Assembly (NCBI RefSeq): GCF_048594345.1
Contig: NZ_JBMDXM010000289.1
Coordinates: forward strand, 456-64,455
Direction of reading: 5' to 3'
DNA: 64,000 bases
From: Longimicrobium sp.
GTDB lineage: Bacteria > Gemmatimonadota > Gemmatimonadetes > Longimicrobiales > Longimicrobiaceae
Shown here: piece by piece, positions 5,300 through 35,161 of the stretch
How positions within the stretch are numbered: the stretch's first letter is position 1
How the letters are laid out: each line of letters begins with the position of its first letter
Translations under genes and position numbers: made by a program
The notes under the pieces: model-generated
What the model was told of the DNA's origin: nothing
The model's database searches: none
Seen by the model: the letters and a program-made list of their open reading frames with translations, nothing else

Positions 5300-5342
5300 G
5301 CCCGGCGTCGGCTCCGAACGGGCAACGTGCCCCCGGCCCGCG

Positions 5343-5653
5343 GGAGCGAATGAATTCGCCGCTGGACAATCGCAAAGTCCGCCCTCGCGGACTCGGCGGC
5401 CCGGCCGCGTGCGGCACTCCACACACCTGCGCGTCCGCTACCAGGGGACGACCCTGCGCATCGAACGCCATAGCCGCGCCCCGAACTTTCATTTCGAGGG
5501 AGCGCCGCGCTGCACCCTCTGTCACGCGATCGCCCGCGCGCGACCGAGAAATCTACTCGCTGCCACTCGTGGCGTTTCGCAGCGTCCCTGTCTCGCGGCC
5601 ACAGTCCGCGCAGGCGGACTTCGTGCCTTTCCAGCGGCGAATCCGTTCGCTCC
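5343..5653. repeat. inverted REP doublet (REPIN/MITE-like), family B
   Basis: 5343-5393 is an imperfect reverse complement of 5603-5653; related cores at ~18405-18447 and ~60008-60055. Confidence 0.75.
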
Positions 5654-5834
5654 TGGACCCGGCGGGTTCGCGTAACCGACTGAATCGCCCCGTACCCAAC
5701 TTCCCCCAGGGTTTTTGGGGGGAGGTGGGCGAGGTTTACGAGCCCGGAGGGGGCGCGCCGCCGGCACGATGCATGTCGCCGAGCCGCGAATCTCCAGTAG
5801 TTGACGTGCGGTCGTGCGAGGAAGGAGGGGCGCG

Positions 5835-7031: not shown

Positions 7032-8104
7032 CGTTCTTTGGCTCGTCGCTCGTTTCGTCGTACTGGAACGGCGCCGCCACGTACTACCGCGGACTCATCC
7101 GCGCGCTGCACGGCCTTGGCCACACCGTCACCTTTTGCGAGCCGGACGCGTACGACCGGCAGAAGAACCGCGACCTGGCGACGGATCCGGCATACGCGCG
7201 CGTCATCGTCTACACGACGGAGGCGGAGCGCGACGCGCTGATCGAGCAGGCGTTCGCGGAAAGCGACTGGGTGATCAAGTGCAGCGGCGTGGGCGTGTGG
7301 GACGCCGAGCTTGAAGAGGCGGTCGCCGAGCGCTCCGGCGGGCGGGCGATGACGGCGTTTCTGGACGTGGACGCCCCCGCGACGCTCGGCCGCATCGCCG
7401 CGGACCCGGCGGACCCGTTCCGCATGCACATCCCCCGCTACGACCAGGTGTTCACCTACGGCGGCGGTCCGCCGGTGGTGCAGGAGTACGAGCGCTGGGG
7501 CGCCCGGGCGTGCACGCCCATCTACAACGCGCTCGATCCGGACGAGCACCGGCCCACGGAGGGCGTTGCCGTGGAGTACGACATCCTCTTCATGGGCAAC
7601 CGCCTGCCGGACCGCGAGGCGCGGGTGGAAGAGTTCTTTTTCCGCGCCGCCGCGCTTTGCCCCGAGCACAGGTTCCTGCTCGGCGGTGAGGGGTGGGGAT
7701 GGAAGACGGACATGCCGGCGAACGTCACGTATCTTGGCCACGTCCCCACCGGCCGCCACAACGCGGTGAACGCGAGCGCGCGGCTGGTGCTCAACATCCA
7801 CCGAGACAGCATGGTGCAGAACGGGTGGAGCCCGGCCACACGCATGTTCGAGGCGGCGGGCGCGGCCAGCTGCCAGGTGACGGACGCGTGGCAGGGGATC
7901 GAAGATTTCTTCGCGCCCGGCGAGGAGATCCTGGTCGCCGCCAGCGCGGAGGAGGTGGCGCAGCTGGTGCGTTCGGTGGATGACGAGCGGGCGCGGCGCA
8001 TCGGGCGGGCGGGGCGGGCGCGCGCGCTGGCGGACCACACCTACACCCGGCGCGCGCGGCAGATGGATGCCGTGCTGCGCGCCGCGCCCGTGGAGGCCGC
8101 ATGA
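7022..8104 (+). CDS. CgeB-like glycosyltransferase
   Basis: FGSSLVSSYWNGAATYYRGL, FMGNRLPDRE, SPATRMFEAA. Confidence 0.85.
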   Translation: MHLTFFGSSLVSSYWNGAATYYRGLIRALHGLGHTVTFCEPDAYDRQKNRDLATDPAYARVIVYTTEAERDALIEQAFAESDWVIKCSGVGVWDAELEEAVAERSGGRAMTAFLDVDAPATLGRIAADPADPFRMHIPRYDQVFTYGGGPPVVQEYERWGARACTPIYNALDPDEHRPTEGVAVEYDILFMGNRLPDREARVEEFFFRAAALCPEHRFLLGGEGWGWKTDMPANVTYLGHVPTGRHNAVNASARLVLNIHRDSMVQNGWSPATRMFEAAGAASCQVTDAWQGIEDFFAPGEEILVAASAEEVAQLVRSVDDERARRIGRAGRARALADHTYTRRARQMDAVLRAAPVEAA

Positions 8105-9174
8105 AGCTCGTCGTCTTCGGCCTGACCCTCTCCTCCAGCTGGGGGAACGGCCACGCGACCACCTACCGCGCACTGCTGCGCGCCTTTGCCGCGCGGGGGC
8201 ACGAGATCGTGTTCTACGAGTGGGACGCGCCCTGGTACAGCGGCAACCGCGACCTCAAGCACCCCGGCTACGTTACCCTCAAGCTCTACGACGACTGGGC
8301 CGCCGTATCCGCCCAGGCCATCGCCGAGGCAAAGGAGGCGGACGCCATCCTCGTCGGCTCCTACGTCAAGGACGGGCCGCGGGTGATCGACGACCTGGCC
8401 GAAGCCGGCGTGGACCCGCTCTTCTTTTACGACATCGACACGCCGGTGACGGTGGCGGCGCTGCGGAGCGGCGGGGCGGAGTACCTGCGGCGCGACCAGG
8501 TGCCGCTGTTCACGCGCTACCTGTCGTTCACCGGCGGACCGTTTCTGCACCAGGTGCTGGAGGGGGAGCTGGGCGCGCGCGAGGCCCGGCCGCTGTACTG
8601 CTCGGTGGATACGGATCGCTATCACCCCACGGACGTCGATCCGCTGCTGGTGAGCGACCTGGCGTACATGGGGACGTACGCGCCCGACCGGCAGCCGGTG
8701 CTGGAGCGGTTCCTGGTAGAGCCGGCGCGGCGGATGCCGGAGCGCAGGTTCTACGTGGCCGGCCCGCAGTACCCGGACGACATCCGCTGGCCGGCCAACG
8801 TGCTGCTGAACCCGCACCTGCCGCCGTCGCTGCACGCCGCTTTCTACAGCAGCGCCCGCTGGCAGCTCAACGCCACCCGCGCCGACATGGTGCAGGCCGG
8901 CTGGTCGCCCAGCGTGCGCCTGTTCGAGGCGGCCGCCTGCGGCGCCGCCATGATCAGCGACCGCTGGCCGGGCATCGACCACTTCTTCACCCCCGGCGTG
9001 GAGATCCTGCTTCCGGAGAGCACCGAGCAGGTCATCGACATCCTCCGCACCACCCACGACGACGACCGGCGGATGATCGGCCTTGCCGCGCGCGCGCGGA
9101 TCCTGGCCGAGCACACCGCCGCGCACCGCGCGGAGGAGCTGGAGGCGCTGGTGGGGGCCGAGGCGTCGGTCTGA
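8101..9174 (+). CDS. CgeB-like glycosyltransferase
   Basis: FGLTLSSSWGNGHATTYRAL, YMGTYAPDRQ, SPSVRLFEAAACG. Confidence 0.85.
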   Translation: MKLVVFGLTLSSSWGNGHATTYRALLRAFAARGHEIVFYEWDAPWYSGNRDLKHPGYVTLKLYDDWAAVSAQAIAEAKEADAILVGSYVKDGPRVIDDLAEAGVDPLFFYDIDTPVTVAALRSGGAEYLRRDQVPLFTRYLSFTGGPFLHQVLEGELGAREARPLYCSVDTDRYHPTDVDPLLVSDLAYMGTYAPDRQPVLERFLVEPARRMPERRFYVAGPQYPDDIRWPANVLLNPHLPPSLHAAFYSSARWQLNATRADMVQAGWSPSVRLFEAAACGAAMISDRWPGIDHFFTPGVEILLPESTEQVIDILRTTHDDDRRMIGLAARARILAEHTAAHRAEELEALVGAEASV

Positions 9175-9236
9175 TTTCGCGGTGGCGCAAACGGCCTCGT
9201 GGCCGCCACCTGGATCGCGAGGTAGAACGGACAGAG

Positions 9237-9265
9237 GGAGCCCGCCGGACCAGCCGGCGGGCTCC
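9237..9265. terminator. hairpin between convergent genes
   Basis: GGAGCCCGCCGG-ACCAG-CCGGCGGGCTCC, 12-bp perfect stem. Confidence 0.6.
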
Positions 9266-9360
9266 TTCGTTCGCACGTGTTGCGCGATCCGCCTCCTCGC
9301 GCGGCCGTTCTACCGGCGCGCGTCGGAGTGCGTGCTCAGCGCGTTGCGCCGCGGGTGGCG

Positions 9361-10653
9361 TCACCAGTTGAAGGTGACGCCGATGACGCTCATCTTGCCC
9401 GCGACGATCGGCGCCCACTGGCCGTTCCACGTGCCGTTGTAGCTTGCCGCGACAACCGGGCCCTTGGTCTGGGCGTCGTCGTTGCTCCAGATCGGCCCCG
9501 CCGGCACGTCCATCGTAAAGCTGACGCCGCCGCTGCCGCTGGCGGGTGCCGGGAACTCGACGCCGACGGTGCTCATCACCGAGCTGACCGCCGTACTCCA
9601 CTGGCCGTTCCACGTGCCGCCGTGAGCCGCGGCGACGATCGGCGCCTTGGTCTGCGCGTCATCGTTGCTCTCGATCGGGCCCGCGGGAATGCTCACGGCG
9701 AACGTGTTGCTCGTGCTTGCGGACGGGCTCGCCGAAGGGCTCTGCCCGCCCAGGCCGTTCACGATCGCGTTCGCGTAGTCCACCGGGTACGTGGCGCCCC
9801 CGCACGACGGGCTGTTCGCGCTCTCGTACTGAAACAGGTCGCCGCTGTTCCACAGAAAGCCGCCGGTGATGCCGCTCCCGCTGAGCCCCTGGAAGGTGCT
9901 CTGGAGGTCCGAAGGGCACGTGGTGCCCTCCCCGCCGGTGACCCAGTAGCCGGGCACCACAAAGGCGCCGGAGTCGGCGATGCCCGCGTCCGCGAGGTTT
10001 ACGGCGGTGATCCAGTCGAGGGGGTCGTTGCCCGCGCCGCCGGCGTAGCACTGCAGGTTGAGCCACTGCACGGGCTGCACGTTGCCGTTCAGCTGGTACA
10101 ACTGCTGGAGGCAGTACGTCCAGAACGGAATGTTCTCGTACGGGGAGTAGGTGACGCCCACGCCCAGGCTGCTCACCTTCATCGTGAGGTCGATGATCAT
10201 CGCTGCCTCCGCGGGCGTATACGCCGGCTTGATCAGCTTCCCCGTCGGGTCGTACTGCGCCTGTGGCTCGTAATCAAAGTCGACGGCGGTGACGGGGAAG
10301 GCGGCGCAGAGGGCTTGCAGGTTCTTTGCGCCTGCCGTGTCCCACGTTGCCTGCAGGTTCACGAAGTCGCTCGCCGTTCCCCATGCGCCCACCGACAGCA
10401 GGATCTCGCTGACGCCGCCCGACACCAGGGCGTTTACGTTGTCGGCGAAGTCGGAGCCGAGCTGCAGCTTGCCTCCGCTCACCATGGGGGTGTCGTTGTA
10501 GTAGAAATCGCCGTTCGCCTGAACGTGGATCGACCACAGAAGGACGGTGGTAAAGCCTCCCTTCGTGAGCTGGGTGATCTGCTCCGCATAGGAAGGCGAG
10601 GGGTTCGTCTCGTTGAAGAGCCCCGTTCCATAAAGTCCGACGCGAGTGCTCAT
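9361..10653 (-). CDS. GH18-like glycoside hydrolase fused to two MVL-type mannan-binding lectin repeats
   Basis: N-terminal ~300 aa with LLSVGAWG, AVDFDYE (DxDxE), LQCYAGG, GGFLW; C-terminal 2x PAGPI(W/E)SNDDAQ..NGQW repeats. Confidence 0.8.
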   Translation of the reverse strand: MSTRVGLYGTGLFNETNPSPSYAEQITQLTKGGFTTVLLWSIHVQANGDFYYNDTPMVSGGKLQLGSDFADNVNALVSGGVSEILLSVGAWGTASDFVNLQATWDTAGAKNLQALCAAFPVTAVDFDYEPQAQYDPTGKLIKPAYTPAEAAMIIDLTMKVSSLGVGVTYSPYENIPFWTYCLQQLYQLNGNVQPVQWLNLQCYAGGAGNDPLDWITAVNLADAGIADSGAFVVPGYWVTGGEGTTCPSDLQSTFQGLSGSGITGGFLWNSGDLFQYESANSPSCGGATYPVDYANAIVNGLGGQSPSASPSASTSNTFAVSIPAGPIESNDDAQTKAPIVAAAHGGTWNGQWSTAVSSVMSTVGVEFPAPASGSGGVSFTMDVPAGPIWSNDDAQTKGPVVAASYNGTWNGQWAPIVAGKMSVIGVTFNW

Positions 10654-11741: not shown

Positions 11742-12209
11742 ATGGCCAATCCGCTCACCCTCCTGATGCCCATCATCCCCGGCACCAGCCCCCTGGCGAT
11801 CGGCGCCGCGCTGGCGAAGTACAACGCCGAGATCAACAGTGCGCTCACCTCCATCGGCACGGTGCACTACGCCCGCTTTCTGCTGCTGGACCGGTCCGTC
11901 CCCAATCTTCAGCCCAACCTTGCCCCCGGCGCCCCGGCGTCCAACGAGCTGGTGCTGGCGGTGATCACGGAGTACGACGGCAGCTTCCAGGCGTACATCG
12001 GCGACTTCGTGGCGCAGATCGGCGACGTGTTCAACGCGCTGCTGCAGTTCGTGGTGGGCGGCGCGGCCGTCACCCCCGTCCAGAGCAACGTCGCCGCGTT
12101 CTCCGCGTTCGTCTCGGCGAACGACGCGTCGGAGCACCAGCCCAACGAAGGGCTGTACTCGGCGTATCCGCAGACGGTGCAGCAGATCATCGCCGCCTTC
12201 GACGTCTGA
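11742..12209 (+). CDS. small DyP-associated hypothetical protein
   Basis: 155 aa, IGTVHYARF and ITEYDGSFQAYIGDF motifs resembling small proteins often encoded beside DyP genes; coherent codon usage. Confidence 0.7.
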   Translation: MANPLTLLMPIIPGTSPLAIGAALAKYNAEINSALTSIGTVHYARFLLLDRSVPNLQPNLAPGAPASNELVLAVITEYDGSFQAYIGDFVAQIGDVFNALLQFVVGGAAVTPVQSNVAAFSAFVSANDASEHQPNEGLYSAYPQTVQQIIAAFDV

Positions 12210-12273
12210 AGCGGCCCGGCGGGAGCGTGCGCACCCGGTGTGCGCTCCCTCTCCTCCCACCGTCCCTCCCTTC

Positions 12274-13692
12274 ATGGCGACAACCCCCGAGATCGACTAC
12301 AACGACGTGCAGGGCACCATCCTGCGCGGCTATCGCGTTGACCTGGCCCGCCACTTCATCCTGCAGATCACCGATGCGGCGGCTGCGGGCGTGTTCATCG
12401 GCAACCTGGTGAACGGCACCGGCGGCGTACCCCGGATCACCCGGGCGCGGCGCTGGAAAGACAAGCCGGATTGCTTCGTCAACATCTCCTTTACCGCGCC
12501 CGGGCTGGCGGCGCTGGGGGTCACGGAGACGGAGCTCGCGACCTTCGATCCCGCCTTTGTCGCCGGCGCCACGGACGCCGCGGTGGCCACCGCGGTGGGC
12601 GACACGGGCTCCAGCGCGCCGGAGTGCTGGCTGGGCGGCATGCAGACCTGGCAGAACGCGCACGTGGTGCTGAGCCTGTGGGTGCACGAGGACGCGGCGG
12701 TGCTGGAAAGCCAGAGCGCCAGCCTGCGGGCGGGGTTCGCGGCGGGGATGAAGGAACTGCTCTTTCACGACGCCACGGCACTGCCCGACAACCACGTGCA
12801 CTTTGGCTACCGCGACAACATCGCGCAGCCCACGGTGATCGGTGCGCCGCCGCGCAAGCACGACATCCCCGACGACCAGCCGCCCGTGCCCACCGGTGAG
12901 TTTCTGCTGGGCTATCCCAACGCGTCCGGCTACGCTTATACCGTGACGCCGCAGCAGCTTTCCACCAACAGCAGCTACGCCGCGTTCCGCATCCTGGACC
13001 AGGACGTCGTGGGTTTCGAGGAGTTTCTTCAGACGTACGCGCCGCGGGCGGGCGTGGACCCGGAGATGCTGGCGGCCAAGGTGTGCGGCCGGTGGCGCAA
13101 CGGGAACCCGCTGGAGCTGATGCCCACCGAGCCCGGCACGGTGCTCCCCACGGACCAGCTGAACGACTTCACCTACGTCGCCGCCACCGTGCCGCCGGAC
13201 GACACGCTGGGCCTCAAGTGCCCCATCGGCTCGCACATCCGGCGCACCAACCCGCGCAACATGCTGGTGACGGGTACCGACAGCACACACCACCGCATCA
13301 CGCGCCGCGCCATGCCGTACGGCCCGGCGTACGACCCCGCCAACCCGGTCGACGTGCCGCGCGGGCTGATCGGCTACTTCATCAACGCAAGCGTGTTCAA
13401 CCAGTTCCAGTTCATCCAGGGGCAGTGGGCGCTCAAAGCCACCTTCGTAAAGTCGGCCAAGTCGCCGGGTGGCCAGCCGCCGGGCAACGCGGTCAACAAC
13501 ATCAGCGGCGAGGATGTGTTCCTGGGCGTCAACGACCCGTCCACCAGCTCGTTCACGCTGCCGGAGGAGCCGTCCAACCAGAAGGTCACCGGCTTTTCGC
13601 GGATGATCACCACCCGCGGCGGGGCCTACGTCTTCTTTCCCAGCATCACGGGCCTGAACTACCTCTCCACGCTTCCCGCCTCCACGACGTAA
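12274..13692 (+). CDS. DyP-type (dye-decolourising) heme peroxidase
   Basis: HFGYRDNIAQP (GxxDG-like), GEFLLGY, GSHIRRTNPR (proximal His), HRITRRAMPYG (distal Arg); no signal peptide. Confidence 0.9.
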   Translation: MATTPEIDYNDVQGTILRGYRVDLARHFILQITDAAAAGVFIGNLVNGTGGVPRITRARRWKDKPDCFVNISFTAPGLAALGVTETELATFDPAFVAGATDAAVATAVGDTGSSAPECWLGGMQTWQNAHVVLSLWVHEDAAVLESQSASLRAGFAAGMKELLFHDATALPDNHVHFGYRDNIAQPTVIGAPPRKHDIPDDQPPVPTGEFLLGYPNASGYAYTVTPQQLSTNSSYAAFRILDQDVVGFEEFLQTYAPRAGVDPEMLAAKVCGRWRNGNPLELMPTEPGTVLPTDQLNDFTYVAATVPPDDTLGLKCPIGSHIRRTNPRNMLVTGTDSTHHRITRRAMPYGPAYDPANPVDVPRGLIGYFINASVFNQFQFIQGQWALKATFVKSAKSPGGQPPGNAVNNISGEDVFLGVNDPSTSSFTLPEEPSNQKVTGFSRMITTRGGAYVFFPSITGLNYLSTLPASTT

Positions 13693-13848: not shown

Positions 13849-13975
13849 TGTCGTTGTTGAACCGCATCTTCCCCCCTGTCCGGTACCGTCCGCATATTCC
13901 CCTCGCGAGCACCGGAACCCGGTATCCTCTCCGTTGACTCCGTGTACGGCCCATCCTTCTTCGTCGATCGGTCGA

Positions 13976-15100
13976 ATGCCCGCGAAGACCGCGGCCTCAT
14001 CCGAAGTGCTCGCCAACCGCGTCCTGAACCGGGCGCTGCTGGAGCGGCAGATGCTGCTTGGGCGCGTGCCCGTTTCCGTGGAAGACGCGCTGGAGCGGCT
14101 GGTGGGGATGCAGGCGCAGGCGCCCGATCCGCCGTACCTGGGGCTGTGGACGCGGCTGAAGGGCTTTCGCCTGGAGGACCTGTCGACGCTGATCCGTGGG
14201 CGGAAGGCGGTGCGCATCGCGTTGATGCGGTCCACGCTCTTCCTCGTCACGGCGCGCGACTGCCTGGCGCTGCGGCCGGTGCTGGATGCGGCCCTGCGCG
14301 ACTGGGCTCTCGGCGTGCACGCCAGGGGGCTGGCGGGGGTGGATCTGGACGCGCTGGCAAAGGCCGGGCGCGCGCTGGCTAAGGAGCAGCCGCGCACCTT
14401 CCACGAGCTGGGCCAGCTGCTGGGGAAGCGCTGGCCCGGCGCGGATCCGTCCGCGCTGGGCAACATGGTGCGCAACCTGGTTCCGCTGGTGCAGGTGCCC
14501 CCGCGCGGCATCTGGGGCGAGGGCGGCCCCGCCGCGCACACCACCGCCGAAGCGTGGCTCGGCCAGCCGCTGAGCCCGGAGCCCTCCGTGGACACCATGG
14601 TGCTGCGCTACCTGGCCGCCTTTGGTCCCGCAACCGCGCGCGACGTGCAGCACTGGTGCGGCCTCAAGCGCCTGGGCCAGGTGCTGGACCGGCTGCGTCC
14701 GCGCCTGCGCACCTTCCGCAGCGAGGCCGGCGCCGAGCTGTTCGACCTGCCCGACGCCCCGCGCCCGGACGCCGACGTCCCCGCGCCGGTGCGTCTGCTC
14801 CCCGAGTTCGACAACGTGCTGCTTTCCCACGCCGACCGCGCCCGCGTCATCAGCGAAGAGCGCCGCAAGCGGGTGTTCACCGTCAACGGCATCATCCGCC
14901 CCACCGTCCTGGTCGACGGGATGGTGCGGGGGATGTGGAAGATGGATCGAAGCCGCGGCGCCGCGACGCTCCTCATCTCCCCCTTCGAACCGCTGGCGGC
15001 CGCCGATCGCGCGGCGCTGGAGAAGGAGGCGATGGCGCTTCTCCGCTTCGCCCACGCCGACGCGAGCGATTACGACGTGCGATTCGGCCCGCCGGCGTGA
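13976..15100 (+). CDS. winged-helix DNA glycosylase, AlkZ/YcaQ family
   Basis: LNRALLERQMLL, GMQAQ (QxQ), YLGLWTRL, MRSTLFLV, RLLPEFDNVLLSH. Confidence 0.85.
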   Translation: MPAKTAASSEVLANRVLNRALLERQMLLGRVPVSVEDALERLVGMQAQAPDPPYLGLWTRLKGFRLEDLSTLIRGRKAVRIALMRSTLFLVTARDCLALRPVLDAALRDWALGVHARGLAGVDLDALAKAGRALAKEQPRTFHELGQLLGKRWPGADPSALGNMVRNLVPLVQVPPRGIWGEGGPAAHTTAEAWLGQPLSPEPSVDTMVLRYLAAFGPATARDVQHWCGLKRLGQVLDRLRPRLRTFRSEAGAELFDLPDAPRPDADVPAPVRLLPEFDNVLLSHADRARVISEERRKRVFTVNGIIRPTVLVDGMVRGMWKMDRSRGAATLLISPFEPLAAADRAALEKEAMALLRFAHADASDYDVRFGPPA

Positions 15101-15192: not shown

Positions 15193-16584
15193 ATGATCCT
15201 GTCCAGCCCCTCCCTTCGCGCGGCGTTCGCCGCCTGCGCACTGGTCCTCGCTGGCGCGTGCGTGCCCGGCCGCGCCTCCACCGGTTCAACGCCGGAGCCG
15301 GAGCCGGGGACAACGCTGGAGCCGCGCGCGTGGACCGCGCAGTCCCCCGCGCCCGAGATCGCCGCCTGGGTTCAGGCGGGGTGCCGGCGCGCGCCGGGGG
15401 GCGCGGACGCGTGCGTGGAGCGCGCGCTGACCGGGCTGCTGGACCAGGCGGGCGTCGCCAAGAGCATGGAAGTGCTCGACACGCTGGCCCTGCGCGAAGA
15501 CGGCGTGCGCGATGATGCGCACGCGCTGGCGCACGGGCTGGGCATCTACGCCTATCGCTCGCCGGAGACGATGGCGCAAACGTTCGTCGCCTGCCCCACG
15601 TCGCAGATGTCCGGGTGCTACCACGGCGTCATCCAGGGCTACTTTCTGGACCTGGGCAGGCAGGGCAAGCCCGTGGGCACGGTGGAAGTGGATGCGCTGT
15701 GCGCGCCGCACACGGGGGAGCAGTTCATCTACTTCCATTGCGCGCACGGGATGGGGCACGGGCTGATGGCGCTGCACCAGAACCACCTGCCCACGGCGCT
15801 GCAGGGGTGCGACCTGGTCACCAGCGATTTCATCCGGGAAAGCTGCTACGGCGGCGCCTTCATGGAGAACGCCATCCAGGCCACGCACCCCCACCACACC
15901 GCCGCCGGCCACGCGCAGACGCAGGAGGCCGCGGGATCGCACGCCTCGGCGGACGCGCACGGGGGGCACGGCGCGCACGGCGGGGCCGATGCGCATGCGG
16001 GGCACGGGGCCGCGGGCGGCGCGCAGGCCATGCGGCACGGCGAGTGGCGCGCGCTGGACCGCGACGATCCGCTGTACCCGTGCAACGCCGTGGACGTAAA
16101 GTACCAGAGCGAATGCTACGGATTTCAGCCGTCGCCCATCATGTACTTCAACGGCGGCGACGTCGCGGCCACCGCGCGGGCGTGCGAGCAGGTGCCGGAG
16201 GCGTTCCAGGCCACCTGCTTCGGCAGCCTGGGCCGCGAGATCACCGCCTGGGCCGACCAGGACCACGCCCGCACGCTCGCCATGTGCGGCCGCGTCGGCG
16301 CGCTGGGGGGCGGCAAGGGAAAGGTGCTGTGCGAGGGCGGCGCCGTGGCCACCCTGATGAACCAGGCCGCCGACCCGCAGGACGGCATCCGCTTCTGCCA
16401 CGCCGTGCAGGGCGCGGAGGCCAAGGAAACCTGCTACGCGCGCGTCGGCGGCTTCACCATCACGCTCATCGGCAACGACGTGCAGGCCCGCGCGCGCCAC
16501 TGCGCCGCCGCCGAGCCGGGGTTCGTCGCCACCTGCCGCCGCGCGGCGGAGGTCGATCCGCCGACGCAGCGGGCGGACAGGTAG
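15193..16584 (+). CDS. Cys/His-rich lipoprotein of unknown function (paralogue 1)
   Basis: lipobox VLAGAC; HALAHGLG, GCYHG, CAHGMGHG, CYGGAFMEN; His-rich insert. Confidence 0.8.
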   Translation: MILSSPSLRAAFAACALVLAGACVPGRASTGSTPEPEPGTTLEPRAWTAQSPAPEIAAWVQAGCRRAPGGADACVERALTGLLDQAGVAKSMEVLDTLALREDGVRDDAHALAHGLGIYAYRSPETMAQTFVACPTSQMSGCYHGVIQGYFLDLGRQGKPVGTVEVDALCAPHTGEQFIYFHCAHGMGHGLMALHQNHLPTALQGCDLVTSDFIRESCYGGAFMENAIQATHPHHTAAGHAQTQEAAGSHASADAHGGHGAHGGADAHAGHGAAGGAQAMRHGEWRALDRDDPLYPCNAVDVKYQSECYGFQPSPIMYFNGGDVAATARACEQVPEAFQATCFGSLGREITAWADQDHARTLAMCGRVGALGGGKGKVLCEGGAVATLMNQAADPQDGIRFCHAVQGAEAKETCYARVGGFTITLIGNDVQARARHCAAAEPGFVATCRRAAEVDPPTQRADR

Positions 16585-16647
16585 CCCGCATTCCGAGGGC
16601 GGGAAGACGACTACAGGAAACTGAGGTCAGGGTACAGAGGAACAGGC

Positions 16648-16702
16648 AACAGCCAGAGGAACAGAGGAGAGAAGGCGGATCACCTCTGTTCCTCTGGCTG
16701 TT
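16648..16702. repeat. 20-bp-stem hairpin repeat (family C)
   Basis: AACAGCCAGAGGAACAGAGG...CCTCTGTTCCTCTGGCTGTT; same arms at 35162-35215. Confidence 0.8.
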
Positions 16703-16853
16703 CTCCGTCCCTGTGTACCTTCCCGCTGTGGTTTGCCCGCGTCTGGGCATCATGCCAGCCCCGGCGCACGGTTGCGAATGCCCGCGCCCGGAGCCAATTT
16801 TGCGTGCGCCGGATGGATCGCTCCGGCCCAGATTCCCATCCAATCAGGCGACG

Positions 16854-18275
16854 ATGACGTTTTCCTTGCACCGGCGCTTTGTGTGCGCCGCGTTTGCCGC
16901 GTGCGCGGCCCTGCTCACCGCGTGTACGCCCTCCGCGCGTTCCGGCGCCGGCGGCCCCGCGCCGGACCTCCAGAGCGCGCCCGATACGCGCGTATGGACC
17001 GCCGAGTCGCCGGCCAGCGAGATCTCGCGCTGGGTGCGGCGGGAGTGCGGCAGCCGCTTTCGGAACAAGCAGGCGTGCGTGGAGCGCACCCTGGTGGCGC
17101 TCATCGACCAGACCGGCATCGGCCGCACCATGGAGGTGCTCGACACGCTGGTGAACGTGGACGGCGACGTGCGCTTCAACGCCCACGCGCTGGCGCACGG
17201 GCTGGGCATTGCCGCATACCGTACGCCGGAAACGCTGGCCACCACCTTTGCCGCCTGCCCGCCCACGCAGATGTCCGGCTGCTACCACGGTGTCGTGCAG
17301 GGCTACTTTCTTTCACTGGCGCGGCAGGGCCGGCTTCCCGGCACGCCGGAACTGAACGCGATGTGCGAGCCGCACCGCGGCACCACGTTCCTGTTCTTTC
17401 AATGTGCGCACGGCGTGGGGCACGGGTTGATGGCCGTGCACGACAACCACGTGCCCATGTCGCTGGACGCGTGCGACCTGGCCAGCGACAAGTTCATCCG
17501 TGACTCCTGCTACGGCGGCGTGTTCATGGAGAACGTGGTGAGCGTCACCCATCCGCACCACACCGCCGAGGGCCACGCCGGCACGCAGGAGGCGCATGGC
17601 GGGCACGATGCACAGCCCGCCGCCGACGCCCACGCGGCTCATGGCGCCGCCGGCCAGCACGCCCACGCCGGGGCCGATGCGCACGCGGGCCACGGCGCCG
17701 CCGGCCAGCAGGCGCAGGCGGCCATGCAGCACACCCCGTGGCGTCCGCTGAACCGCGACGACCCGCTGTACCCGTGCAACGCCGTCGCGGAAAAGTACCA
17801 GGAGGCGTGCTACATGATGCAGACGTCCGCCATCCTGTACTTCAACGGCGGCGACGTGGCCGCCACGGGCCGTGCGTGCGAGGGCGCCCCGGCTTCCATG
17901 CAGGCGCTCTGCTTCGGCAGCCTGGGGCGCGACATCACCGCGCTGGCCAGCCAGCAGCACGCGCGCTCGCTGGAGCTGTGCGGGCGCACCGCGGGGCAGG
18001 CGGGCGGCCGGGGCCAGCTGTGGTGCACGGTGGGCGTGGTGCAGAACCTGGTGAACGTCGCCGCCGATCCCGGCGAGGGCCTGCGCTTCTGCCGCGCCGT
18101 CGCCGGTGGGGACACCAAGAGCCAGTGCTACCGCGCGGTGGGGGAGATGATCGGCACGCTGGTGAACGCCCCCGCCCAGCGCAGCGAGTCGTGCCAGGGC
18201 GCCGAACCCGAGTACGTCGCCGTCTGCCGCAGCGGCGCCGGCGTAGAAACCTCCGCCGGCAGCGACGACGAGTAG
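16854..18275 (+). CDS. Cys/His-rich lipoprotein of unknown function (paralogue 2)
   Basis: lipobox LLTAC; same motifs as paralogue 1 (HALAHGLG, GCYHG, CAHGVGHG, CYGGVFMEN, DDPLYPCNAV). Confidence 0.8.
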   Translation: MTFSLHRRFVCAAFAACAALLTACTPSARSGAGGPAPDLQSAPDTRVWTAESPASEISRWVRRECGSRFRNKQACVERTLVALIDQTGIGRTMEVLDTLVNVDGDVRFNAHALAHGLGIAAYRTPETLATTFAACPPTQMSGCYHGVVQGYFLSLARQGRLPGTPELNAMCEPHRGTTFLFFQCAHGVGHGLMAVHDNHVPMSLDACDLASDKFIRDSCYGGVFMENVVSVTHPHHTAEGHAGTQEAHGGHDAQPAADAHAAHGAAGQHAHAGADAHAGHGAAGQQAQAAMQHTPWRPLNRDDPLYPCNAVAEKYQEACYMMQTSAILYFNGGDVAATGRACEGAPASMQALCFGSLGRDITALASQQHARSLELCGRTAGQAGGRGQLWCTVGVVQNLVNVAADPGEGLRFCRAVAGGDTKSQCYRAVGEMIGTLVNAPAQRSESCQGAEPEYVAVCRSGAGVETSAGSDDE

Positions 18276-18346
18276 CCTTCCGTCACCGCCGGACGACCAA
18301 CGTGGAGCCGACGCGCAGATGCTGCCGTCGGCTCCACGCCATTTCC

Positions 18347-18692
18347 CCCGTTGCGGACGCGCCGGTGCCCGGGCCGCCGCACACCCCCGTGCCGCCGAGC
18401 CCACGCAGGCGGACTTCGTGTAGTTGTTGCCGCGAATTTATTCGCCCTGGCAAGGCGGCTGGCACGCCACCATCGGTATCGCTCCCCCGTTGCGGACGCG
18501 CCGGTGCCCGGGCCGCCGCACACCCCCGTGCCGCCGAGTCCCCGCAGGCGGACTTCGTGTAGTTGTTGCCGCGAATTTATTCGCCCTGGCAAGGCGGCCG
18601 GCACGCCACCATCGGTACCGCGCACCCGTTGCGGACGCGCCGGTGCCCGGGCCGTCGCACACCCCCGTGCCGCCGAGTCCGCGCAGGCGGAA
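18347..18692 (+). repeat. 139-bp tandem repeat, about 2.5 copies, containing the family B REP core
   Basis: CCCGTTGCGGACGCGCCGG starts at 18347, 18486 and 18625. Confidence 0.9.
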
Positions 18693-18929
18693 TCGTGACG
18701 TTCCAGCCGCGGTTTCAACCGCCGAACTCGGAGCCGGCTGAGCCGCGCTGAACTCGACCGCCCACATCTGCTTCCAAACCGGCTTCGGCGGATGCACATC
18801 CGCCGGCTCGCGTCGTCCAGGTTTCCGTGGCTAGCGCGTTCTCGCTGACTTGTGTGTCCCCGGACAGCTCCGCATGTTTCCGCACCCTGGCGGTTCTGCC
18901 GGGTGCTTTCCATTCCCCTGACGCCCCTC

Positions 18930-19439
18930 ATGCATCTGCGAAGCATTGTCCACGTGACCGCCGCCTGTCTGACGCTGGCCGCGTGCGAATCGTCCACGGG
19001 CTCCACACCGGTTCAGGGCATCTACAACCTCACGAGCGTGAACGGGCGCCCGCTCCCGGCCACCCTGGATTCCGTGGTGTGGGAGGACGGAATTACGTAT
19101 ACCCTGGAAGGCCTGGAGCGTAGCTCGGTGGAGATCATGGATGGTGACAGCGCGCTTTACACCATCTCCCGGAGCACGATGACGCGGTACGCCTCTGGAA
19201 GTTTTGCGCATTCCGGCACCTGCTCCACGTGGTCTGTGCCCTACCGCATCCAGGGCAGCCGCCTGCTCCTGATCGTGGAGCCGGCGCTGTTGGGCCAGAC
19301 GGGGCGGCTGCGGCTGGACACGCTGGAGATCGGCGACGACATGCTGGTGCGCAACACGCGCAGCGCCACGGGCGCACCCGCGCGGCTGGAATACACGCCG
19401 GCCACCCAGCCCGCGCGCTGCCCGGGGATTGACCCGTGA
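18930..19439 (+). CDS. hypothetical lipoprotein
   Basis: lipobox LAAC; GIYNLTSVNGRPLP motif. Confidence 0.7.
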   Translation: MHLRSIVHVTAACLTLAACESSTGSTPVQGIYNLTSVNGRPLPATLDSVVWEDGITYTLEGLERSSVEIMDGDSALYTISRSTMTRYASGSFAHSGTCSTWSVPYRIQGSRLLLIVEPALLGQTGRLRLDTLEIGDDMLVRNTRSATGAPARLEYTPATQPARCPGIDP

Positions 19440-19915
19440 GCCGCCGCGCCATGAAGATCGGGTTGATCCGGGCGCTGCTCCCGCTGCTCGCCCTGGCCGC
19501 CGCCTGCGAAGGAACCTCCGAGCCCGGCGGCGTCGAAGGCCGCTACACCGTGCAGGCCGTCAACGGCAAGCGCCCGCCGGTTGCGGTGCGCGGCACCGCG
19601 GCCGGCGGAACGCTGCAGGTGGTGGATGCCCGCCTGGATCTGGATCCCCCCAACGCCGTGGTGGAGCTGAAGACCCGCCTGGTCGCCGGGAACGGCACCG
19701 CGGGCGCGCCGGCCACCACGACGTACAGCGGCGCCTGGCGGGCGAGCGGCGACATCATCACGTTCGAACTGCTCGACGCCTCCGACGGCGGTCCCCGCGT
19801 CCGCGCCGAAGGCGTGGTGGTGTCGCCGCGCGAGGTGGCGGTCACGCTGCATTTTGCCGTCTCCAGCAGCGAGGGATACTTCACCTACCCGGTGTCCCTC
19901 ATCCTGGGCCGCTGA
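19436..19915 (+). CDS. hypothetical lipoprotein
   Basis: lipobox AAAC; GRYTVQAVNGKRPP; 4-bp overlap with upstream gene. Confidence 0.7.
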   Translation: MSRRAMKIGLIRALLPLLALAAACEGTSEPGGVEGRYTVQAVNGKRPPVAVRGTAAGGTLQVVDARLDLDPPNAVVELKTRLVAGNGTAGAPATTTYSGAWRASGDIITFELLDASDGGPRVRAEGVVVSPREVAVTLHFAVSSSEGYFTYPVSLILGR

Positions 19916-20553: not shown

Positions 20554-21618
20554 GTGAATCCCACGCCCGCACGCTACCGCCTTCGGGGTCCCGTGAGAAC
20601 ATCCGCATCCGTACTCGCCGCCGCCGCGCTGCTCGCGGCCGCGCCGCTCGCCGCGCAGGACGAACCCGCCGGGCAGGGGCAGGTCCACGTGGTGCGCCCC
20701 GGCGAGACGCTGTGGGACATTGCCCGCGCCTGCCTGTCCGACCCGTTCCTGTGGCCGGAGATCTTCCGGCTCAACATCGGCACCGTCGAAGACCCCGCCC
20801 GCATCTATCCCAGCGAGCGCCTGGTCCTTCCCGCCTGCGCCGGGCAGGCCGTGGACGAGGGCCCGGTTTTTGGCCCGGCCGTGCAGGCGCCGCGGGGCCC
20901 CACGCTGCGCCTGGGCGTGACGGTGGAACAGCCCGCCGTGCTGGAGGGCGACTTTTACCGCGCCGCCTTTGTGGCCCAGCCGCGCGAGGTGCCGCTGGTG
21001 GGCCGGCTTGAAGAGGCGGAGTACCAGTCGGTGATGCAGCTGCAGATGACGCCGCAGCTCAACCTGTACGACCGCGTGTTCGTGCGGGTAGACCCCGCGC
21101 GCGTCGCCGTGGGCGACCGGCTGCACTTTCTGCGCGAAGGGCGCGAGATCCGCCGCAGCGGGCGCCGCGTGTACCTGCCCACCGGCGTGGGCACCGTGGC
21201 GGCGGTGAGCGACGGTACCGCGACCGTGGTGATCGTGGGCATGTTCGACCAGGTGCGGCCGGGCGACGCGGCCATCCAGCCCGAGGCGTTCCCCATCCGC
21301 ACCCTGGACCGTCCCGCCGCCGTCGACGCCGACCTGCAGGGCCGCGTTTTGGCGTTCCGCGACGACACCCCGCTGCAGCGCACCGAGTCCATCGTGTTCC
21401 TGGACATCGGCCGCAGCGCGGGCGTGGGCGTGGGCGACGAGTTCGAGCTGTACGACCCCTCCAGCCAGCGCCGCTGGGGCACGCGCCCCGAGGTGCCGGT
21501 CGCGCGCGGGCAGGTGGTCAAAGTCACCGAGGGCACGGCGTCGGTGCGGGTGACGGAACTGGAGCAGCCCCGCATTGCGGTGGGACTGCCGGTGCGCCGC
21601 GTGGCGCGGATGCCGTGA
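20554..21618 (+). CDS. LysM peptidoglycan-binding domain protein (secreted)
   Basis: signal peptide ending PLAAQD; HVVRPGETLWDIA..WPEIFRLN..IYPSERL. Confidence 0.85.
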   Translation: MNPTPARYRLRGPVRTSASVLAAAALLAAAPLAAQDEPAGQGQVHVVRPGETLWDIARACLSDPFLWPEIFRLNIGTVEDPARIYPSERLVLPACAGQAVDEGPVFGPAVQAPRGPTLRLGVTVEQPAVLEGDFYRAAFVAQPREVPLVGRLEEAEYQSVMQLQMTPQLNLYDRVFVRVDPARVAVGDRLHFLREGREIRRSGRRVYLPTGVGTVAAVSDGTATVVIVGMFDQVRPGDAAIQPEAFPIRTLDRPAAVDADLQGRVLAFRDDTPLQRTESIVFLDIGRSAGVGVGDEFELYDPSSQRRWGTRPEVPVARGQVVKVTEGTASVRVTELEQPRIAVGLPVRRVARMP

Positions 21619-21703
21619 CCGAGCAGGCACGGGCGGGCAGGCCCGGCGGTGCGTTCGGCGCCCTTCCCCCGGGGAGGGCGTCTCTGCGTCCGGAGGGTGC
21701 GCG

Positions 21704-22528
21704 ATGGAGCTGACGCAGCTGCTGCACGTGGCCGCGCTGGCCTTCTACGCGCTGACGGCCGCGCTCCTGGGCGTGTCGCTGGCCCGCAGCGCCCGCCGCC
21801 TTCCCGCCGCCGCCACGGCGTGCCTGGCCGGCGGCGTGGTTGCGCACGGCGCCGCGCTGGCCTCGTTCGCCGCGCAGTACGGCGAGCTGCCGCTGGTGGG
21901 GCTGGGCCCGTCGCTTTCCGTGCTGGCGCTGCTGGTGGCCATCGGCTCCCTGCTCCTGGCCACGCTGGGACGTACGGGACCGCTGGGGCTGGTCCTGGTC
22001 CCCGTGGCCGCCGCGCTGGCGGGCGTGGCGGAGGTGGCCGGGGTGCGGCCGGCGCACCAGGAGATGGCGTTCCGCGGCCCCTGGTTCGTTTTTCACGTCG
22101 TCCTGGCGATGGTGGGCTACGCGGGGCTGACCGTGGCCTTCGCCGCGGGACTGATGTACCTGCTCCAGTTTCGCGAGCTGAAGGGAAAGCGCTTCGGGGC
22201 CGTGTTCCGCTTCTTTCCCCCACTCGACACGCTGGACCGCATCGGGCGGCGGGCGCTGATGGTGGGGTTGCCCTTCCTGACCGTGGCGCTGCTGGTGGGG
22301 TGGGCGTGGGCGGAGCGCTTCGGGCTGGCGATGGAAGCCGGAAACCCCAAGATCGTCTGGGGGGTAATCACCTGGATCGTCTTTGTGGCGGCGCTCATCG
22401 CCCGCGCGGGCGAGGGCGCGGCGCGCGCGCGGCGCGGGGCGCTGGTCTCGGTGGTGGGCTTCGCGGTGGTGGTGGCGGCGTACGTGCTGCTGCGCGCCGC
22501 GGAGAGCGCCGGCGCGGGGTTCCTGTGA
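21704..22528 (+). CDS. ccsA: cytochrome c assembly family membrane protein (CcsA/HemX-like)
   Basis: multi-TM; FHVVLA, PPLDTLDRI, PKIVWGVITW; position before sirC/hemA. Confidence 0.8.
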   Translation: MELTQLLHVAALAFYALTAALLGVSLARSARRLPAAATACLAGGVVAHGAALASFAAQYGELPLVGLGPSLSVLALLVAIGSLLLATLGRTGPLGLVLVPVAAALAGVAEVAGVRPAHQEMAFRGPWFVFHVVLAMVGYAGLTVAFAAGLMYLLQFRELKGKRFGAVFRFFPPLDTLDRIGRRALMVGLPFLTVALLVGWAWAERFGLAMEAGNPKIVWGVITWIVFVAALIARAGEGAARARRGALVSVVGFAVVVAAYVLLRAAESAGAGFL

Positions 22529-23166
22529 GCGCGGCGGCGTATCCGTTGATGCTGGACGTGGCGCGGCTGCGCGTGCTGGTGGTGGGCGGCGGCGCGGTCG
22601 CCGCGCGAAAGGTGGCGGGGCTGGCGGACGCCGGCGGGCGCCCCACCATCGTGGCCCCCTCGGCCACGGACGAGCTGCGGGCGTCCATCGAGCGCCTGCG
22701 GCTCGTCTGGCATCCACGGACCTATCATTCGATGGATGTCGATCGCCACCACCTGGTGTTCGCCGCGACGAACGACCAAGCGGTGAACCAGCGGGTCGCG
22801 GACGACGCGCGCGCGGCCGGCGCGCTGGTGAGCCGCGCGGACGAGGGCGGGGAGAGCGACTTTCACGTCCCGTCGCAGCTGCGCCAGGACGACGTGGTGG
22901 TCGCCTTTTCCACCGGGGGCGCGTCGCCGCTGCTGGCGCGGCGACTGCGCGAGCGGCTGGCGACGGTCGTTACCCCCGGGCTGGGGCGCGCGGCGCGCAG
23001 GCTGGCGGCGGTGCGCGCGGAAGTTCAGGCGCGCTGGTCCGCGGACGAATCGCGGCGGCGCGCCTTCTGGTTCGATTTGATCACTCCCGAGTTCCTGGAC
23101 CTTGCGGTCGCGGGACGGGACGATGACGTGGAGCAGTCCATCCGCCGATGCCTCTCGCAGTCGTAG
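22525..23166 (+). CDS. precorrin-2 dehydrogenase / sirohydrochlorin ferrochelatase (CysG N-terminal type)
   Basis: YPLMLD, LVVGGGAVAARK, FAATND, FSTGGASPLLA. Confidence 0.85.
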   Translation: MSAAAYPLMLDVARLRVLVVGGGAVAARKVAGLADAGGRPTIVAPSATDELRASIERLRLVWHPRTYHSMDVDRHHLVFAATNDQAVNQRVADDARAAGALVSRADEGGESDFHVPSQLRQDDVVVAFSTGGASPLLARRLRERLATVVTPGLGRAARRLAAVRAEVQARWSADESRRRAFWFDLITPEFLDLAVAGRDDDVEQSIRRCLSQS

Positions 23167-24464
23167 GCGCAAGCCACCGCACGGCGCCCATCGAGCACCG
23201 GGAACGGTTCGCCCTGGGGCGCGCCGAAGTTCCGGGCGCGCTCCTGGGGCTGGCCGCGGACGGTTCGGAGGCGGTGGTGCTTTCCACCTGCAACCGCACC
23301 GAAGTCTACCTCTCCTTGCCCGACGGCTCGGACGGGGTGGAGCAGGCGCGCGCCCTGCTGTCGGCCCGCATCGGGCACGATCCGTCCGCCGCCGCGCGCT
23401 ACTTCTACGTCCACCGTGACCGGCAGGCCGCGGAGCACCTGTTCCGCGTCTCGTCCGGCCTGGATTCCATGATCCTGGGCGAGCCGCAGATCCAGGGGCA
23501 GGTCAAGGAGGCGTACGCCGCCGCCCGCGAGGTGGCGGGGGAGAACGGCCCCGTGGTGGGCCAGGCGCTGCACCGGCTTTTCCAGACGGCGTTCTCCATC
23601 GGCGGGCGGGTGCGCAGCGAGACGGGGCTGGGGATCGGCGCCGCCTCCGTCTCCAGCGCGGCGGTGGACCTGGCGAAAAAGATCTTCGGCTCGCTCAAGG
23701 GCCGCCGCGCGCTGGTCCTGGGGGCGGGGGAGATGAGCGAGACCACGCTGGAGTGCCTGCGCGACGAAGGCGTGCGGACGGCCATCGTCGCCAACCGCAC
23801 CTTCGACCGCGCGGCGGAGCTGGCGGAGCGGCTGGGGGGCGAGGCCATCCACTGGGAGGAGTTCGGCGCCGCGCTGCCGCAGGTGGACATCGTCATCTGC
23901 TCCACCTCGGCCCCGCACCCGGTGCTCACGGTGGAGCGCCTGCGCGCCGCGCTGCCGCACGGGCCGCGGCGCCCGCTGTGCATCATCGACATCGCCATCC
24001 CGCGCGACGTGGAGACGGCGGTGGCCGACCAGCCCAACGTCTTTCTGTACAACATCGACGACCTGCAGCAGATCGTGGACGACAACCTGGGGCGCCGCCG
24101 CGCGCAGCTGCCCCAGGCGGAGACGATCGTGTCGCAGGGGGTGGAGGACTTCTGGGCGTGGTACAGCAGCCTGGCCGTGGTGCCGACGATCCGTGCCCTG
24201 CGCGACCGGGGCGAGGCCATGCGCCGCGCCGAGGTGGAGCGCGCGCTGCGCCAGCTTTCGCACCTGTCGCCCGAGGACCAGCTGGCCATCGACGCCCTTA
24301 CCCGGTCGCTGGTGAACAAGGTGCTGCACGCCCCCACCGCCCGCCTGCGCGACGCCGCCGGCAACGGCCGCGGCACGGGCGTGCTCGACACCGTGCGCTA
24401 CCTGTTCGAGCTGGACCGCGATGCGCACGGCTCCGGCGAACCGGGCAAGGACGGCAACGGGTGA
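23148..24464 (+). CDS. hemA: glutamyl-tRNA reductase
   Basis: GASHRTAP, LSTCNRTE, SGLDSMILGEPQIQGQVK, GAGEM, DIAIPRD. Confidence 0.97.
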   Translation: MPLAVVGASHRTAPIEHRERFALGRAEVPGALLGLAADGSEAVVLSTCNRTEVYLSLPDGSDGVEQARALLSARIGHDPSAAARYFYVHRDRQAAEHLFRVSSGLDSMILGEPQIQGQVKEAYAAAREVAGENGPVVGQALHRLFQTAFSIGGRVRSETGLGIGAASVSSAAVDLAKKIFGSLKGRRALVLGAGEMSETTLECLRDEGVRTAIVANRTFDRAAELAERLGGEAIHWEEFGAALPQVDIVICSTSAPHPVLTVERLRAALPHGPRRPLCIIDIAIPRDVETAVADQPNVFLYNIDDLQQIVDDNLGRRRAQLPQAETIVSQGVEDFWAWYSSLAVVPTIRALRDRGEAMRRAEVERALRQLSHLSPEDQLAIDALTRSLVNKVLHAPTARLRDAAGNGRGTGVLDTVRYLFELDRDAHGSGEPGKDGNG

Positions 24465-34966: not shown

Positions 34967-35161
34967 CGGTGGTGAGCGGCCTCACACCGATCCCGACGTT
35001 GACTTGCTGAGGGAGGCGCCACGTGGGAACATCCCCTGGCGCCGCAACCGTGGCGCCGACTGAAGGACCTCCTCTCCCGGTGCACGGGACCCGTCGCGTA
35101 CCACGATGCTCTCAGATACCGAATCCGGAAAAGCAACATCGGAAGGTACAGGGGGACCGAG

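Follow-up and report, generated by a model that had tools for sequence, protein, structure and literature searches.

A candidate metal site on predicted exported helical repeat proteins encoded by a tandem gene pair of Longimicrobium

A stretch of 64,000 nucleotides from Longimicrobium sp. (Gemmatimonadota; NCBI RefSeq assembly GCF_048594345.1, contig NZ_JBMDXM010000289.1, positions 456 to 64,455 of the forward strand; G+C content ~70%), hereafter called the window, contains two adjacent genes for Cys- and His-rich proteins that belong to a large family without a name. Our main finding is that members of this family share an almost invariant set of His, Met and Glu residues, here referred to as the grid, which appears to form a stripe along one face of an all-helical solenoid and which is probably a metal site. 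On the evidence of sequence comparison, what is new here is the family-wide invariance of the grid, the pairwise retention and swapping of the Cys residues, and the fusion of the same module to electron-carrier domains in relatives. The reading that best accommodates these observations is that of an exported, lipid-anchored solenoid with a metal grid, probably of redox function, and a metal-capturing loop; taken as a whole, we consider the chances of this reading to be evenly balanced.

The gene pair and its conserved residues

The two paralogous genes, which had been noted in an earlier reading of the window made without database searches (the sequence-only reading), lie on the + strand; the sequence features described in that reading proved accurate throughout. 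A pairwise protein comparison aligned their products with 54% identity across 441 residues (E = 4e-163). Their main features, including those predicted from an AlphaFold2 model and its predicted local distance difference test (pLDDT) scores, are listed below in window coordinates together with the basis of each assignment.

15193 to 16584, + strand: copy 1 gene including the stop codon, 463 amino acids (translation; 54% identity with copy 2)
16854 to 18275, + strand: copy 2 gene including the stop codon, 473 amino acids (translation; 80-88% identical orthologs in Longimicrobium metagenome-assembled genomes)
15193 to 15261, + strand: predicted signal peptide of copy 1 with the lipobox-like sequence LAGAC, Cys23 (sequence; conservation of the Cys column)
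16854 to 16925, + strand: predicted signal peptide of copy 2 with the canonical lipobox LLTAC, Cys24 (sequence; conservation of the Cys column)
15520 to 15870, + strand: His/Met/Glu grid of copy 1, H110, H114, H144, Q148, H185, H189, M224 and E225, assigned to the long helices of repeats 2-5 (motif positions; family-wide invariance)
17184 to 17534, + strand: grid of copy 2, H111, H115, H145, Q149, H186, H190, M225, E226 and N227 (predicted helices; invariance; repeat register)
15886 to 16065, + strand: His/Ala/Gly-rich loop of copy 1, residues 232-291, 11 His (composition)
17550 to 17759, + strand: His/Ala/Gly-rich loop of copy 2, residues 233-302, 13 His (composition; low pLDDT)

Regular-expression searches found HALAHGLG, GCYHG, CAHG(M/V)GHG, CYGG(A/V)FMEN and HPHHT once apiece in each copy, among them all four motifs that the sequence-only reading had cited as shared. 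The CxxCH heme-attachment motif was absent from both proteins in the same kind of search, and the earlier statement that they are not c-type cytochromes therefore holds. For the family as a whole we used a working definition consisting of the motif series HxxxHxxG...G(C/Y)xHG...CxHGxGHG...CxxGxxME(N) followed by a C-terminal half with 4-5 further Cys-paired repeats; both window proteins carry all of these elements, and 236 of the 270 collected relatives matched the full family regular expression. Each mature protein has exactly 18 Cys, in agreement with the approximate count given before, arranged as nine pairs with 8-15 residues within a pair and ~22-28 between pairs, whereas another two to three Cys are located in the signal peptide and lipobox. 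Because this pattern of Cys residues and motifs recurs in hundreds of homologous sequences, we regard it as far beyond chance.

The grid emerged from two alignments, both numbered here according to copy 2. Among 36 sequences whose members are 26-57% identical to copy 2, H111, H115, H145, H186, H190, M225, the Cys pairs and a few Gly and Pro are invariant, and E226, N227 and D208 are nearly so. A hidden Markov model of the module, built from residues 100-232, yielded 317 aligned module hits from 264 proteins in a collection biased towards Gemmatimonadota, ~280 of which have H-H-H-(Q/E)-H-H-M-E at positions 111, 115, 145, 149, 186, 190, 225 and 226. There are two clear exceptions, each having lost four of the positions together, and the grid residues are kept in all modules of 29 multi-domain relatives.

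The spatial arrangement of these residues can be approached through the internal repetition of the protein. Comparison of the N-terminal with the C-terminal half by hhalign (E = 8.9e-5) revealed a common repeat, C-x-x-G-h-G-x-x-h, in whose register C143-x-H145 pairs with C391 and C184-x-H186-xxx-H190 with C425, so that the His fall at Cys+2 and Cys+6. The grid residues thus occupy Cys+2 and Cys+6 in four successive repeats (2-5), each time on the long helix, and the i/i+4 pairs face ~200-240 degrees away from the paired Cys and are flanked by the small residues of HGxGHG. We infer from this register and from the model described below that the long-helix layer bears, along one face, an unbroken 2 x 4 stripe of potential ligand side chains, in which the grid would consist of H111/H115, H145/Q(E)149, H186/H190 and G221/M225 together with E226, on the helix face opposite to the Cys staple. 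With such a set of residues, a metal site is the probable role of the grid.

The AlphaFold2 model of copy 2, which was based on a 40-sequence alignment, has a mean pLDDT of 83.2, a predicted template modeling score of 0.78 and 318 residues at pLDDT of 90 or higher. It is all helix, with short helices alternating with long ones; pLDDT falls below 50 at residues 248-289 within the His-rich loop and at the termini. The grid-bearing helices span residues 110-121, 139-157, 178-195 and 213-232, and the five His of the grid, as well as its Met and its Glu, fall within confident helices. When the model was compared with the PDB by Foldseek, nothing was found at E <= 0.001, and only generic solenoids of HEAT, ARM or importin type were returned with TM-scores of 0.26 or less.

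From the third repeat on, one Cys of each pair ends a short helix in the copy 2 model and its partner lies ~5 residues into the following long helix. The behavior of one pair across the family is informative in this respect: the pair 135/143 occurs in 267 of the 284 modules of the family-wide module alignment, in 257 of them as the only one of the two pairs, 16 modules without it have a pair at 110/139 instead, 10 modules have both, and neither pair is ever half-occupied. This all-or-none behavior supports bridges between the paired Cys, and we therefore think that the pairs probably form disulfide bonds, one staple per repeat. The alternative pair 110/139 also places, independently of the model, the helix of H111 beside the start of the helix of H145. 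Overall, the scaffold would comprise ~10 alpha/alpha repeats in which a loop connects a short helix to a long one, and a single disulfide would brace each repeat by tying the last part of the short helix to the first part of the long helix. The disulfide-stapled helical repeats proposed by the sequence-only reading fit both the all-alpha solenoid and the all-or-none Cys pairs.

An alternative use of the Cys residues would be as Cu(I) thiolate ligands in a copper store resembling Csp, a notion prompted by 18 conserved, strictly paired Cys in a family with copper-related fusions. However, export of Sec or lipoprotein type would deliver the proteins into an oxidizing compartment, each pair in the model connects two successive helices where one ends and the other begins (a staple geometry) and lines no cavity, and the replacement of a lost 135/143 pair by 110/139 is more easily understood for a structural bridge than for a metal site of fixed position. 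Thiolate storage is accordingly very improbable in our view.

With regard to export, the signal peptide of copy 2 ends in the canonical lipobox LLTA-C24, and LAGA-C23 of copy 1 is a weaker match to the criterion applied here, a signal peptide ending in [LVI][ASTVI][GAS]-C. Among the closest relatives, at least 90% retain the lipobox Cys. The proposal that both are lipoproteins is thus borne out by a lipobox in each copy, lipidation itself being a prediction. Of the 243 family members with a complete N-terminus, 137 have a lipobox-like motif and 236 an N-terminal hydrophobic segment, which indicates that the family is predicted to be extracytoplasmic throughout.

Family breadth, the histidine-rich loop and fused domains

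Scans of both window proteins against Pfam and NCBIfam gave sub-threshold noise only, and the PDB sequence set was matched neither by a single protein nor by the 36-sequence profile. The profile search that the sequence-only reading had suggested therefore connected the proteins to no characterized family, and, with Foldseek returning generic solenoids only, its remark that the family could not be named stands. Full-text literature searches aimed at the motifs, the fused domains and the solenoid/copper context found no description of the family either. By contrast with this lack of annotation, homologs are numerous. A word-indexed protein search listed 956, the closest of which (60-88% identical, all annotated as hypothetical protein) come from metagenome-assembled genomes of Longimicrobium and other Gemmatimonadota and from Longimicrobium terrae. 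Using phmmer over 1.84 billion cluster representatives, 2,891 proteins were found at E <= 1e-3 and 1,321 at E <= 1e-10, from which we estimate a family size of about 2,900 clusters at 50% identity. Multi-module giants occur among them, such as a protein of 3,580 amino acids with 15 matched stretches.

A pattern scan of a genome-contig collection covering 185,579 species confirmed at least 531 relatives, the best 80 of which belong to Gemmatimonadota, Allosphingosinicella/Sphingomonadales, Binatia and Thermodesulfobacteriota. Further members are encoded by Saccharimonadales of the Candidate Phyla Radiation (CPR), by Actinomycetota, and by a contig that is probably archaeal because it encodes a TATA-binding protein gene. 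Within the phylum of the window itself, the family was found in 29 of the 121 genomes sampled, and the source genome has four copies.

The sequence-only reading had also drawn attention to a His/Gly/Ala-rich insert in both proteins. This insert is indeed present, bounded by HPHH and DPLYPC in both copies and starting at a widely conserved PHH motif directly after the helix that carries M225, E226 and N227; it comprises 60 amino acids with 11 His, 17 Ala and 12 Gly in copy 1, and 70 amino acids with 13 His, 21 Ala and 10 Gly in copy 2. It is not peculiar to the pair, however: sequence comparison shows that most family members have a hypervariable His-rich loop at the equivalent position, of which the window inserts are an expanded version. 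Among 273 family modules the loop varies from 11 to 178 amino acids and from 0 to 28 His, 85% of the loops contain at least one His and 64% contain HxH, and the His content is 14.5% in loops vs 4.2% in whole proteins. Median values differ between lineages as follows.

Longimicrobiales: median loop length 72 amino acids, median 12-13 His
Other Gemmatimonadota: median loop length 44 amino acids, median 5 His
Sphingomonadales: median loop length ~52 amino acids, median 5 His
Binatia: median loop length 28 amino acids, median 5 His

The loops examined from CPR and the probable archaeon are short and have one to three His or zero, and the Longimicrobium window proteins are single-module proteins with the longest His loops. 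In many relatives the loop is Met-rich as well, with MDH/GM repeats (for example AAMDHAAMDHGAMGHEGMDHGAM and AGMAGMDHSGMAGMDHS, or DEHAGHDMP in L. terrae), which are similar to segments of CueO, PcoA and Pseudomonas syringae CopA that are rich in Met and bind copper (PMC3847284).

The wide spread of loop length and His number is what would be expected of a capacity element, and it lends some substance to an alternative in which the proteins are non-redox metal buffers or chaperones, grid and loop capturing periplasmic Zn, Ni or Cu for sequestration or delivery. Precedents for such metal capture are the His-rich loop of ZnuA and the tails of UreE and HypB. The composition of the window loops, rich in His, Asp, Gly and Ala with one Met only, would suit this role, as would the lack of any electron carrier fused to or adjacent to the genes in Longimicrobium. 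On the other hand, three different electron-carrier fusions elsewhere are hard to square with a passive binder, the eight grid positions are conserved more strictly than is usual for a buffer, and no transporter or metal-regulated gene was linked to the family in 80 loci; a pure buffer or chaperone is hence unlikely.

These fusions involve three unrelated folds. Of 29 long relatives, 6 have Cupredoxin_1 domains, as a rule with each solenoid module accompanied by one such domain (P0158, P0180, P0181, P0198, P0230 and P0237). An N-terminal cytochrome b5 domain with an HPGG motif occurs in one relative (P0242), and four relatives of Actinomycetota type, including P0361, have at their N-terminus a class-I cytochrome c that contains CGDCH and, further downstream, a Met. 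The fusion of three unrelated electron-carrier folds to the same module provides the best evidence for an electron-transfer role, and it suggests that the grid site is probably redox-active. Homologs of the fused cupredoxins include plastocyanin and the additional cupredoxin domain of NirK (matches to PDB 9cck and 6hbe). The fused domains themselves have Asp, Asn and Leu at the positions of the type-1 Cys, His and Met ligands, and share conserved His in HWPASNxHPTH and W(R/K)(Y/F)HDH; they look like an undescribed, Cys-less cupredoxin subtype, as far as can be judged from the sequences. The His of W(R/K)(Y/F)HDH are reminiscent of the HxH motifs of multicopper oxidases. A Pfam scan (PF00127, PF13473 and PF07732) detected no cupredoxin-fold domain in the window proteins, such domains being fused only in distant relatives.

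The same set of relatives includes one with a fused GH3 domain, and this fusion, together with the giant multi-module surface proteins of CPR and the probable archaeon, a LysM gene near the pair in Longimicrobium, and the fact that only HEAT/ARM-type solenoids, which bind proteins, were returned by Foldseek, would be in keeping with a metal-independent scaffold. In that case the solenoid would bind an envelope or host glycan, peptidoglycan or a protein, and the His stripe would be pH-sensitive or hydrogen-bonding. Against this, five His, a Met and a Glu arranged as i/i+4 pairs are a typical set of metal ligands, His abounds in the loops, as does Met in many relatives, and cupredoxin and cytochrome fusions are recurrent, which together make a metal-independent role improbable.

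Possible function and comparison with known systems

In the exported redox solenoid that we favor, both window proteins would be exported by the Sec pathway, anchored by a lipid and active outside the cytoplasm. Their grid would bind one or more transition-metal ions, of which copper would be the likeliest, and, if redox-active, would exchange electrons with cupredoxin-like, cytochrome b5 or cytochrome c carriers, which in Longimicrobium would be separate proteins. The disordered loop may capture metal, buffer ions or hand them to the grid, or contribute additional ligands. The parts of this proposal differ in strength: the assignment of copper to the grid is tentative and falls somewhat short of an even chance, and the prediction of a redox enzyme or redox partner is likewise to be taken with reserve. 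As for the metal binding (Cu/Ni/Zn) originally suggested for the pair, the invariant grid and the fusions strengthen it without proving it. Family-level evidence favors copper over Ni or Zn, a preference that is weaker for the window proteins themselves because of their Met-poor loops.

Several observations weigh against this proposal. Many members come from CPR bacteria, which generally have no respiratory chains. The fused cupredoxins, being without the type-1 Cys, His and Met ligands, may not be electron carriers, and a search of the source genome for the Cys-less cupredoxin gave canonical type-1 cupredoxin domains on other contigs only. No copper-homeostasis, chaperone or electron-carrier gene is conserved beside the members in 80 loci or beside the other paralogs. 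Finally, the loops of the window proteins are nearly Met-free and resemble His tracts of Ni/Zn type as much as copper motifs; as a consequence of their low Met content, the copper assignment rests on the family and not on the two window sequences.

A more specific and rather doubtful extension of the same idea is that the family represents a new class of extracytoplasmic redox metalloenzymes, with a multi-ion copper or mixed-metal cluster held by the grid on the flat face formed by four neighboring solenoid helices. The site might then be completed or fed by the Cys-less cupredoxin, with its WPASNxHPTH and YHDH His similar to those of multicopper oxidases, in CPR and the probable archaeon, fed by the fused cytochrome c in Actinomycetota, and served by the expanded His-rich loop in Longimicrobia. 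On this reading the architecture of the site would be unrelated to known copper folds and spread across at least six phyla or candidate phyla.

Several known systems work in comparable ways. DOHH is a HEAT-repeat di-iron enzyme whose metal centre is located on consecutive solenoid helices and whose two halves are joined by a variable loop. It differs in being cytosolic, in having four His-Glu motifs instead of the HxxxH, H, HxxxH and ME of the window proteins, and in the absence of disulfides; no HEAT match was found in Pfam and DOHH was not in the Foldseek top 50. ZnuA, a periplasmic zinc binder, has a disordered His-rich loop beside a His-based site, which is thought to capture metal and pass it on. 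ZnuA is, however, a cluster-9 solute-binding protein encoded with an ATP-binding cassette (ABC) transporter, and no transporter was linked to the solenoid genes in 80 loci. The Helicobacter Hcp proteins (HcpA-E) and other Sel1-like repeat (SLR) proteins are exported alpha/alpha solenoids with one disulfide per repeat between its helices, an arrangement that the window proteins would share if their Cys pairs are bridged as predicted. Their Cys are spaced by ~7 residues, as compared with 8-15 in the window proteins, and we know of no SLR protein with an invariant His/Met/Glu grid or a His-rich loop; moreover, there was no Pfam match to Sel1 (PF08238) at E <= 1, and no Hcp chain appeared in the PDB profile search (E <= 10) or in the Foldseek top 50.

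Flexible His/Met-rich segments beside a catalytic metal site, as seen in relatives of the pair, are known from the Met-rich helix of CueO and from PcoA and P. syringae CopA (PMC3847284), whereas these proteins are multicopper oxidases of cupredoxin fold and not all-alpha solenoids, and the window loops have hardly any Met. Copper nitrite reductases (PDB 9cck and 6hbe) have a donor cupredoxin or cytochrome c that is fused in some lineages and free in others, similar to the solenoid family, but the catalytic module of NirK is a cupredoxin trimer without similarity to the solenoid, and the solenoid-fused cupredoxin is devoid of type-1 ligands. All of these systems are analogs in their way of working and none is a relative.

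Genomic context, paralogy and implications

In the window the pair is preceded by an open reading frame (ORF) of 155 amino acids (11742-12209) without a Pfam match, a DyP-like gene (12238-13692) and AlkZ (13934-15100), and copy 2 is followed by two small ORFs, a LysM gene, a CcsA-like gene, a gene for the SirC-type N-domain of siroheme synthase, and HemA. Nearly the same gene order exists in L. terrae, which has a single copy of the family. The AlkZ-like DNA glycosylase gene, which follows the 155-amino-acid ORF and the DyP-like gene in the window, precedes these two in L. terrae, a local rearrangement around the solenoid genes. The two overlapping small ORFs directly downstream of the pair (18852-19439 and 19436-19915) have signal- or lipoprotein-like N-termini, match nothing in Pfam and are not kept beside the L. 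terrae homolog. The heme-biosynthesis cluster at 21575-24464 (CcsA/HemX-like membrane protein, SirC-type domain and glutamyl-tRNA reductase HemA) is syntenic with L. terrae, and is probably an ordinary cluster unrelated to the gene pair.

The survey of homolog neighborhoods, another check proposed with the sequence-only reading, was based on ORFs called and clustered in 82 loci (the best 80 of the pattern scan plus L001 and L003) and showed no conserved functional partner gene. The most widespread neighbor family was present in 9 of the 82 loci, and the recurring neighbors were housekeeping genes tied to single clades; the neighborhoods of the CPR, probable archaeal and Actinomycetota-like members and of the two other paralogs in the source genome were uninformative. 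As there are no conserved neighbors beyond Longimicrobium, the genes look like stand-alone units. A functional link with DyP and the hem genes was considered and rejected, since the synteny extends to L. terrae and not beyond and the DyP has no export signal.

The same neighborhood bears on one further alternative, a site for b-type heme or another tetrapyrrole with His/Met or bis-His ligation as in cytochrome b562, which would make the proteins electron carriers or heme shuttles. Its attractions are the invariant set of His and Met, the other heme domains fused in relatives, and the position of the Longimicrobium gene between a DyP-type heme peroxidase and the hemA/sirC/ccsA-like cluster. However, His residues at i and i+4 on the same side of a helix cannot serve together as ligands of a single heme iron, the DyP/hem synteny is restricted to Longimicrobium and absent from 80 other loci, the DyP has no export signal, and the MDH-type loops point to copper; a heme site is thus quite improbable.

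Two loci place paralogs near histidine kinase genes. Metagenome contig L003 carries four tandem family paralogs (3433-9551) followed by a convergent PAS-rich hybrid histidine kinase, and the third paralog of the source genome (L088 6285-10919) lies 103 bp downstream of a PAS histidine kinase of 1,099 amino acids on the same strand. A regulatory link between the kinases and the paralogs is possible.

In the phylogenetic tree, copies 1 and 2 fall into separate, well-supported clades, each with orthologs in other Longimicrobium genomes; the orthogroup of copy 1 includes P0113, P0107 and P0121, and P0113 and P0007 are encoded on one 14.7-kb contig with consecutive locus tags. Because of these separate clades with orthologs and the adjacency of P0113 and P0007, the sequences indicate that copies 1 and 2 are old paralogs whose duplication predates the divergence of these species.

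A scan for a sigma-70-type promoter consensus found none. The following element, which does not belong to the proteins, lies in the spacer between the two genes.

16631 to 16719: hairpin with 40-nt arms between copies 1 and 2

The arms of the hairpin are 85% complementary, it begins 47 nt past the stop codon of copy 1, and the fold of the intergenic region has a z-score of -6.5. The hairpin belongs to a family of dispersed palindromes, of which the source genome contains at least 40 copies at 90-96% identity, another one being located at 35141-35240 of the window. An Rfam search with the hairpin gave only sub-threshold matches to miRNA hairpins, and the element may be similar to miniature inverted-repeat transposable elements (MITEs) or repetitive extragenic palindromic (REP) sequences, or may represent a structured-RNA family. 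Immediately after the stop codon of copy 2, a 139-nt unit is present in 2.5 tandem copies (18344-18691). This unit is dispersed as well: both strands together carry ~60 matches, frequently grouped into short tandem arrays, with identities of 74-92% (mostly 74-89%). One copy is situated ~380 nt downstream of the fourth paralog (G000:C172:14457-14575).

If the grid is a real metal centre, these genes would belong to a large, unstudied metalloprotein family with members as different as Gemmatimonadota from soil, ultra-small CPR bacteria and a probable archaeon, and a ligand grid on a solenoid surface would be a site architecture without a solved precedent. L. terrae, a cultured and named species, has a homolog in the syntenic locus. 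With such a metal centre, many surface proteins now annotated as hypothetical, among them the multi-module giants of symbiotic lineages, would acquire a function, and a previously unseen extracellular redox reaction or pathway of copper handling could come to light.

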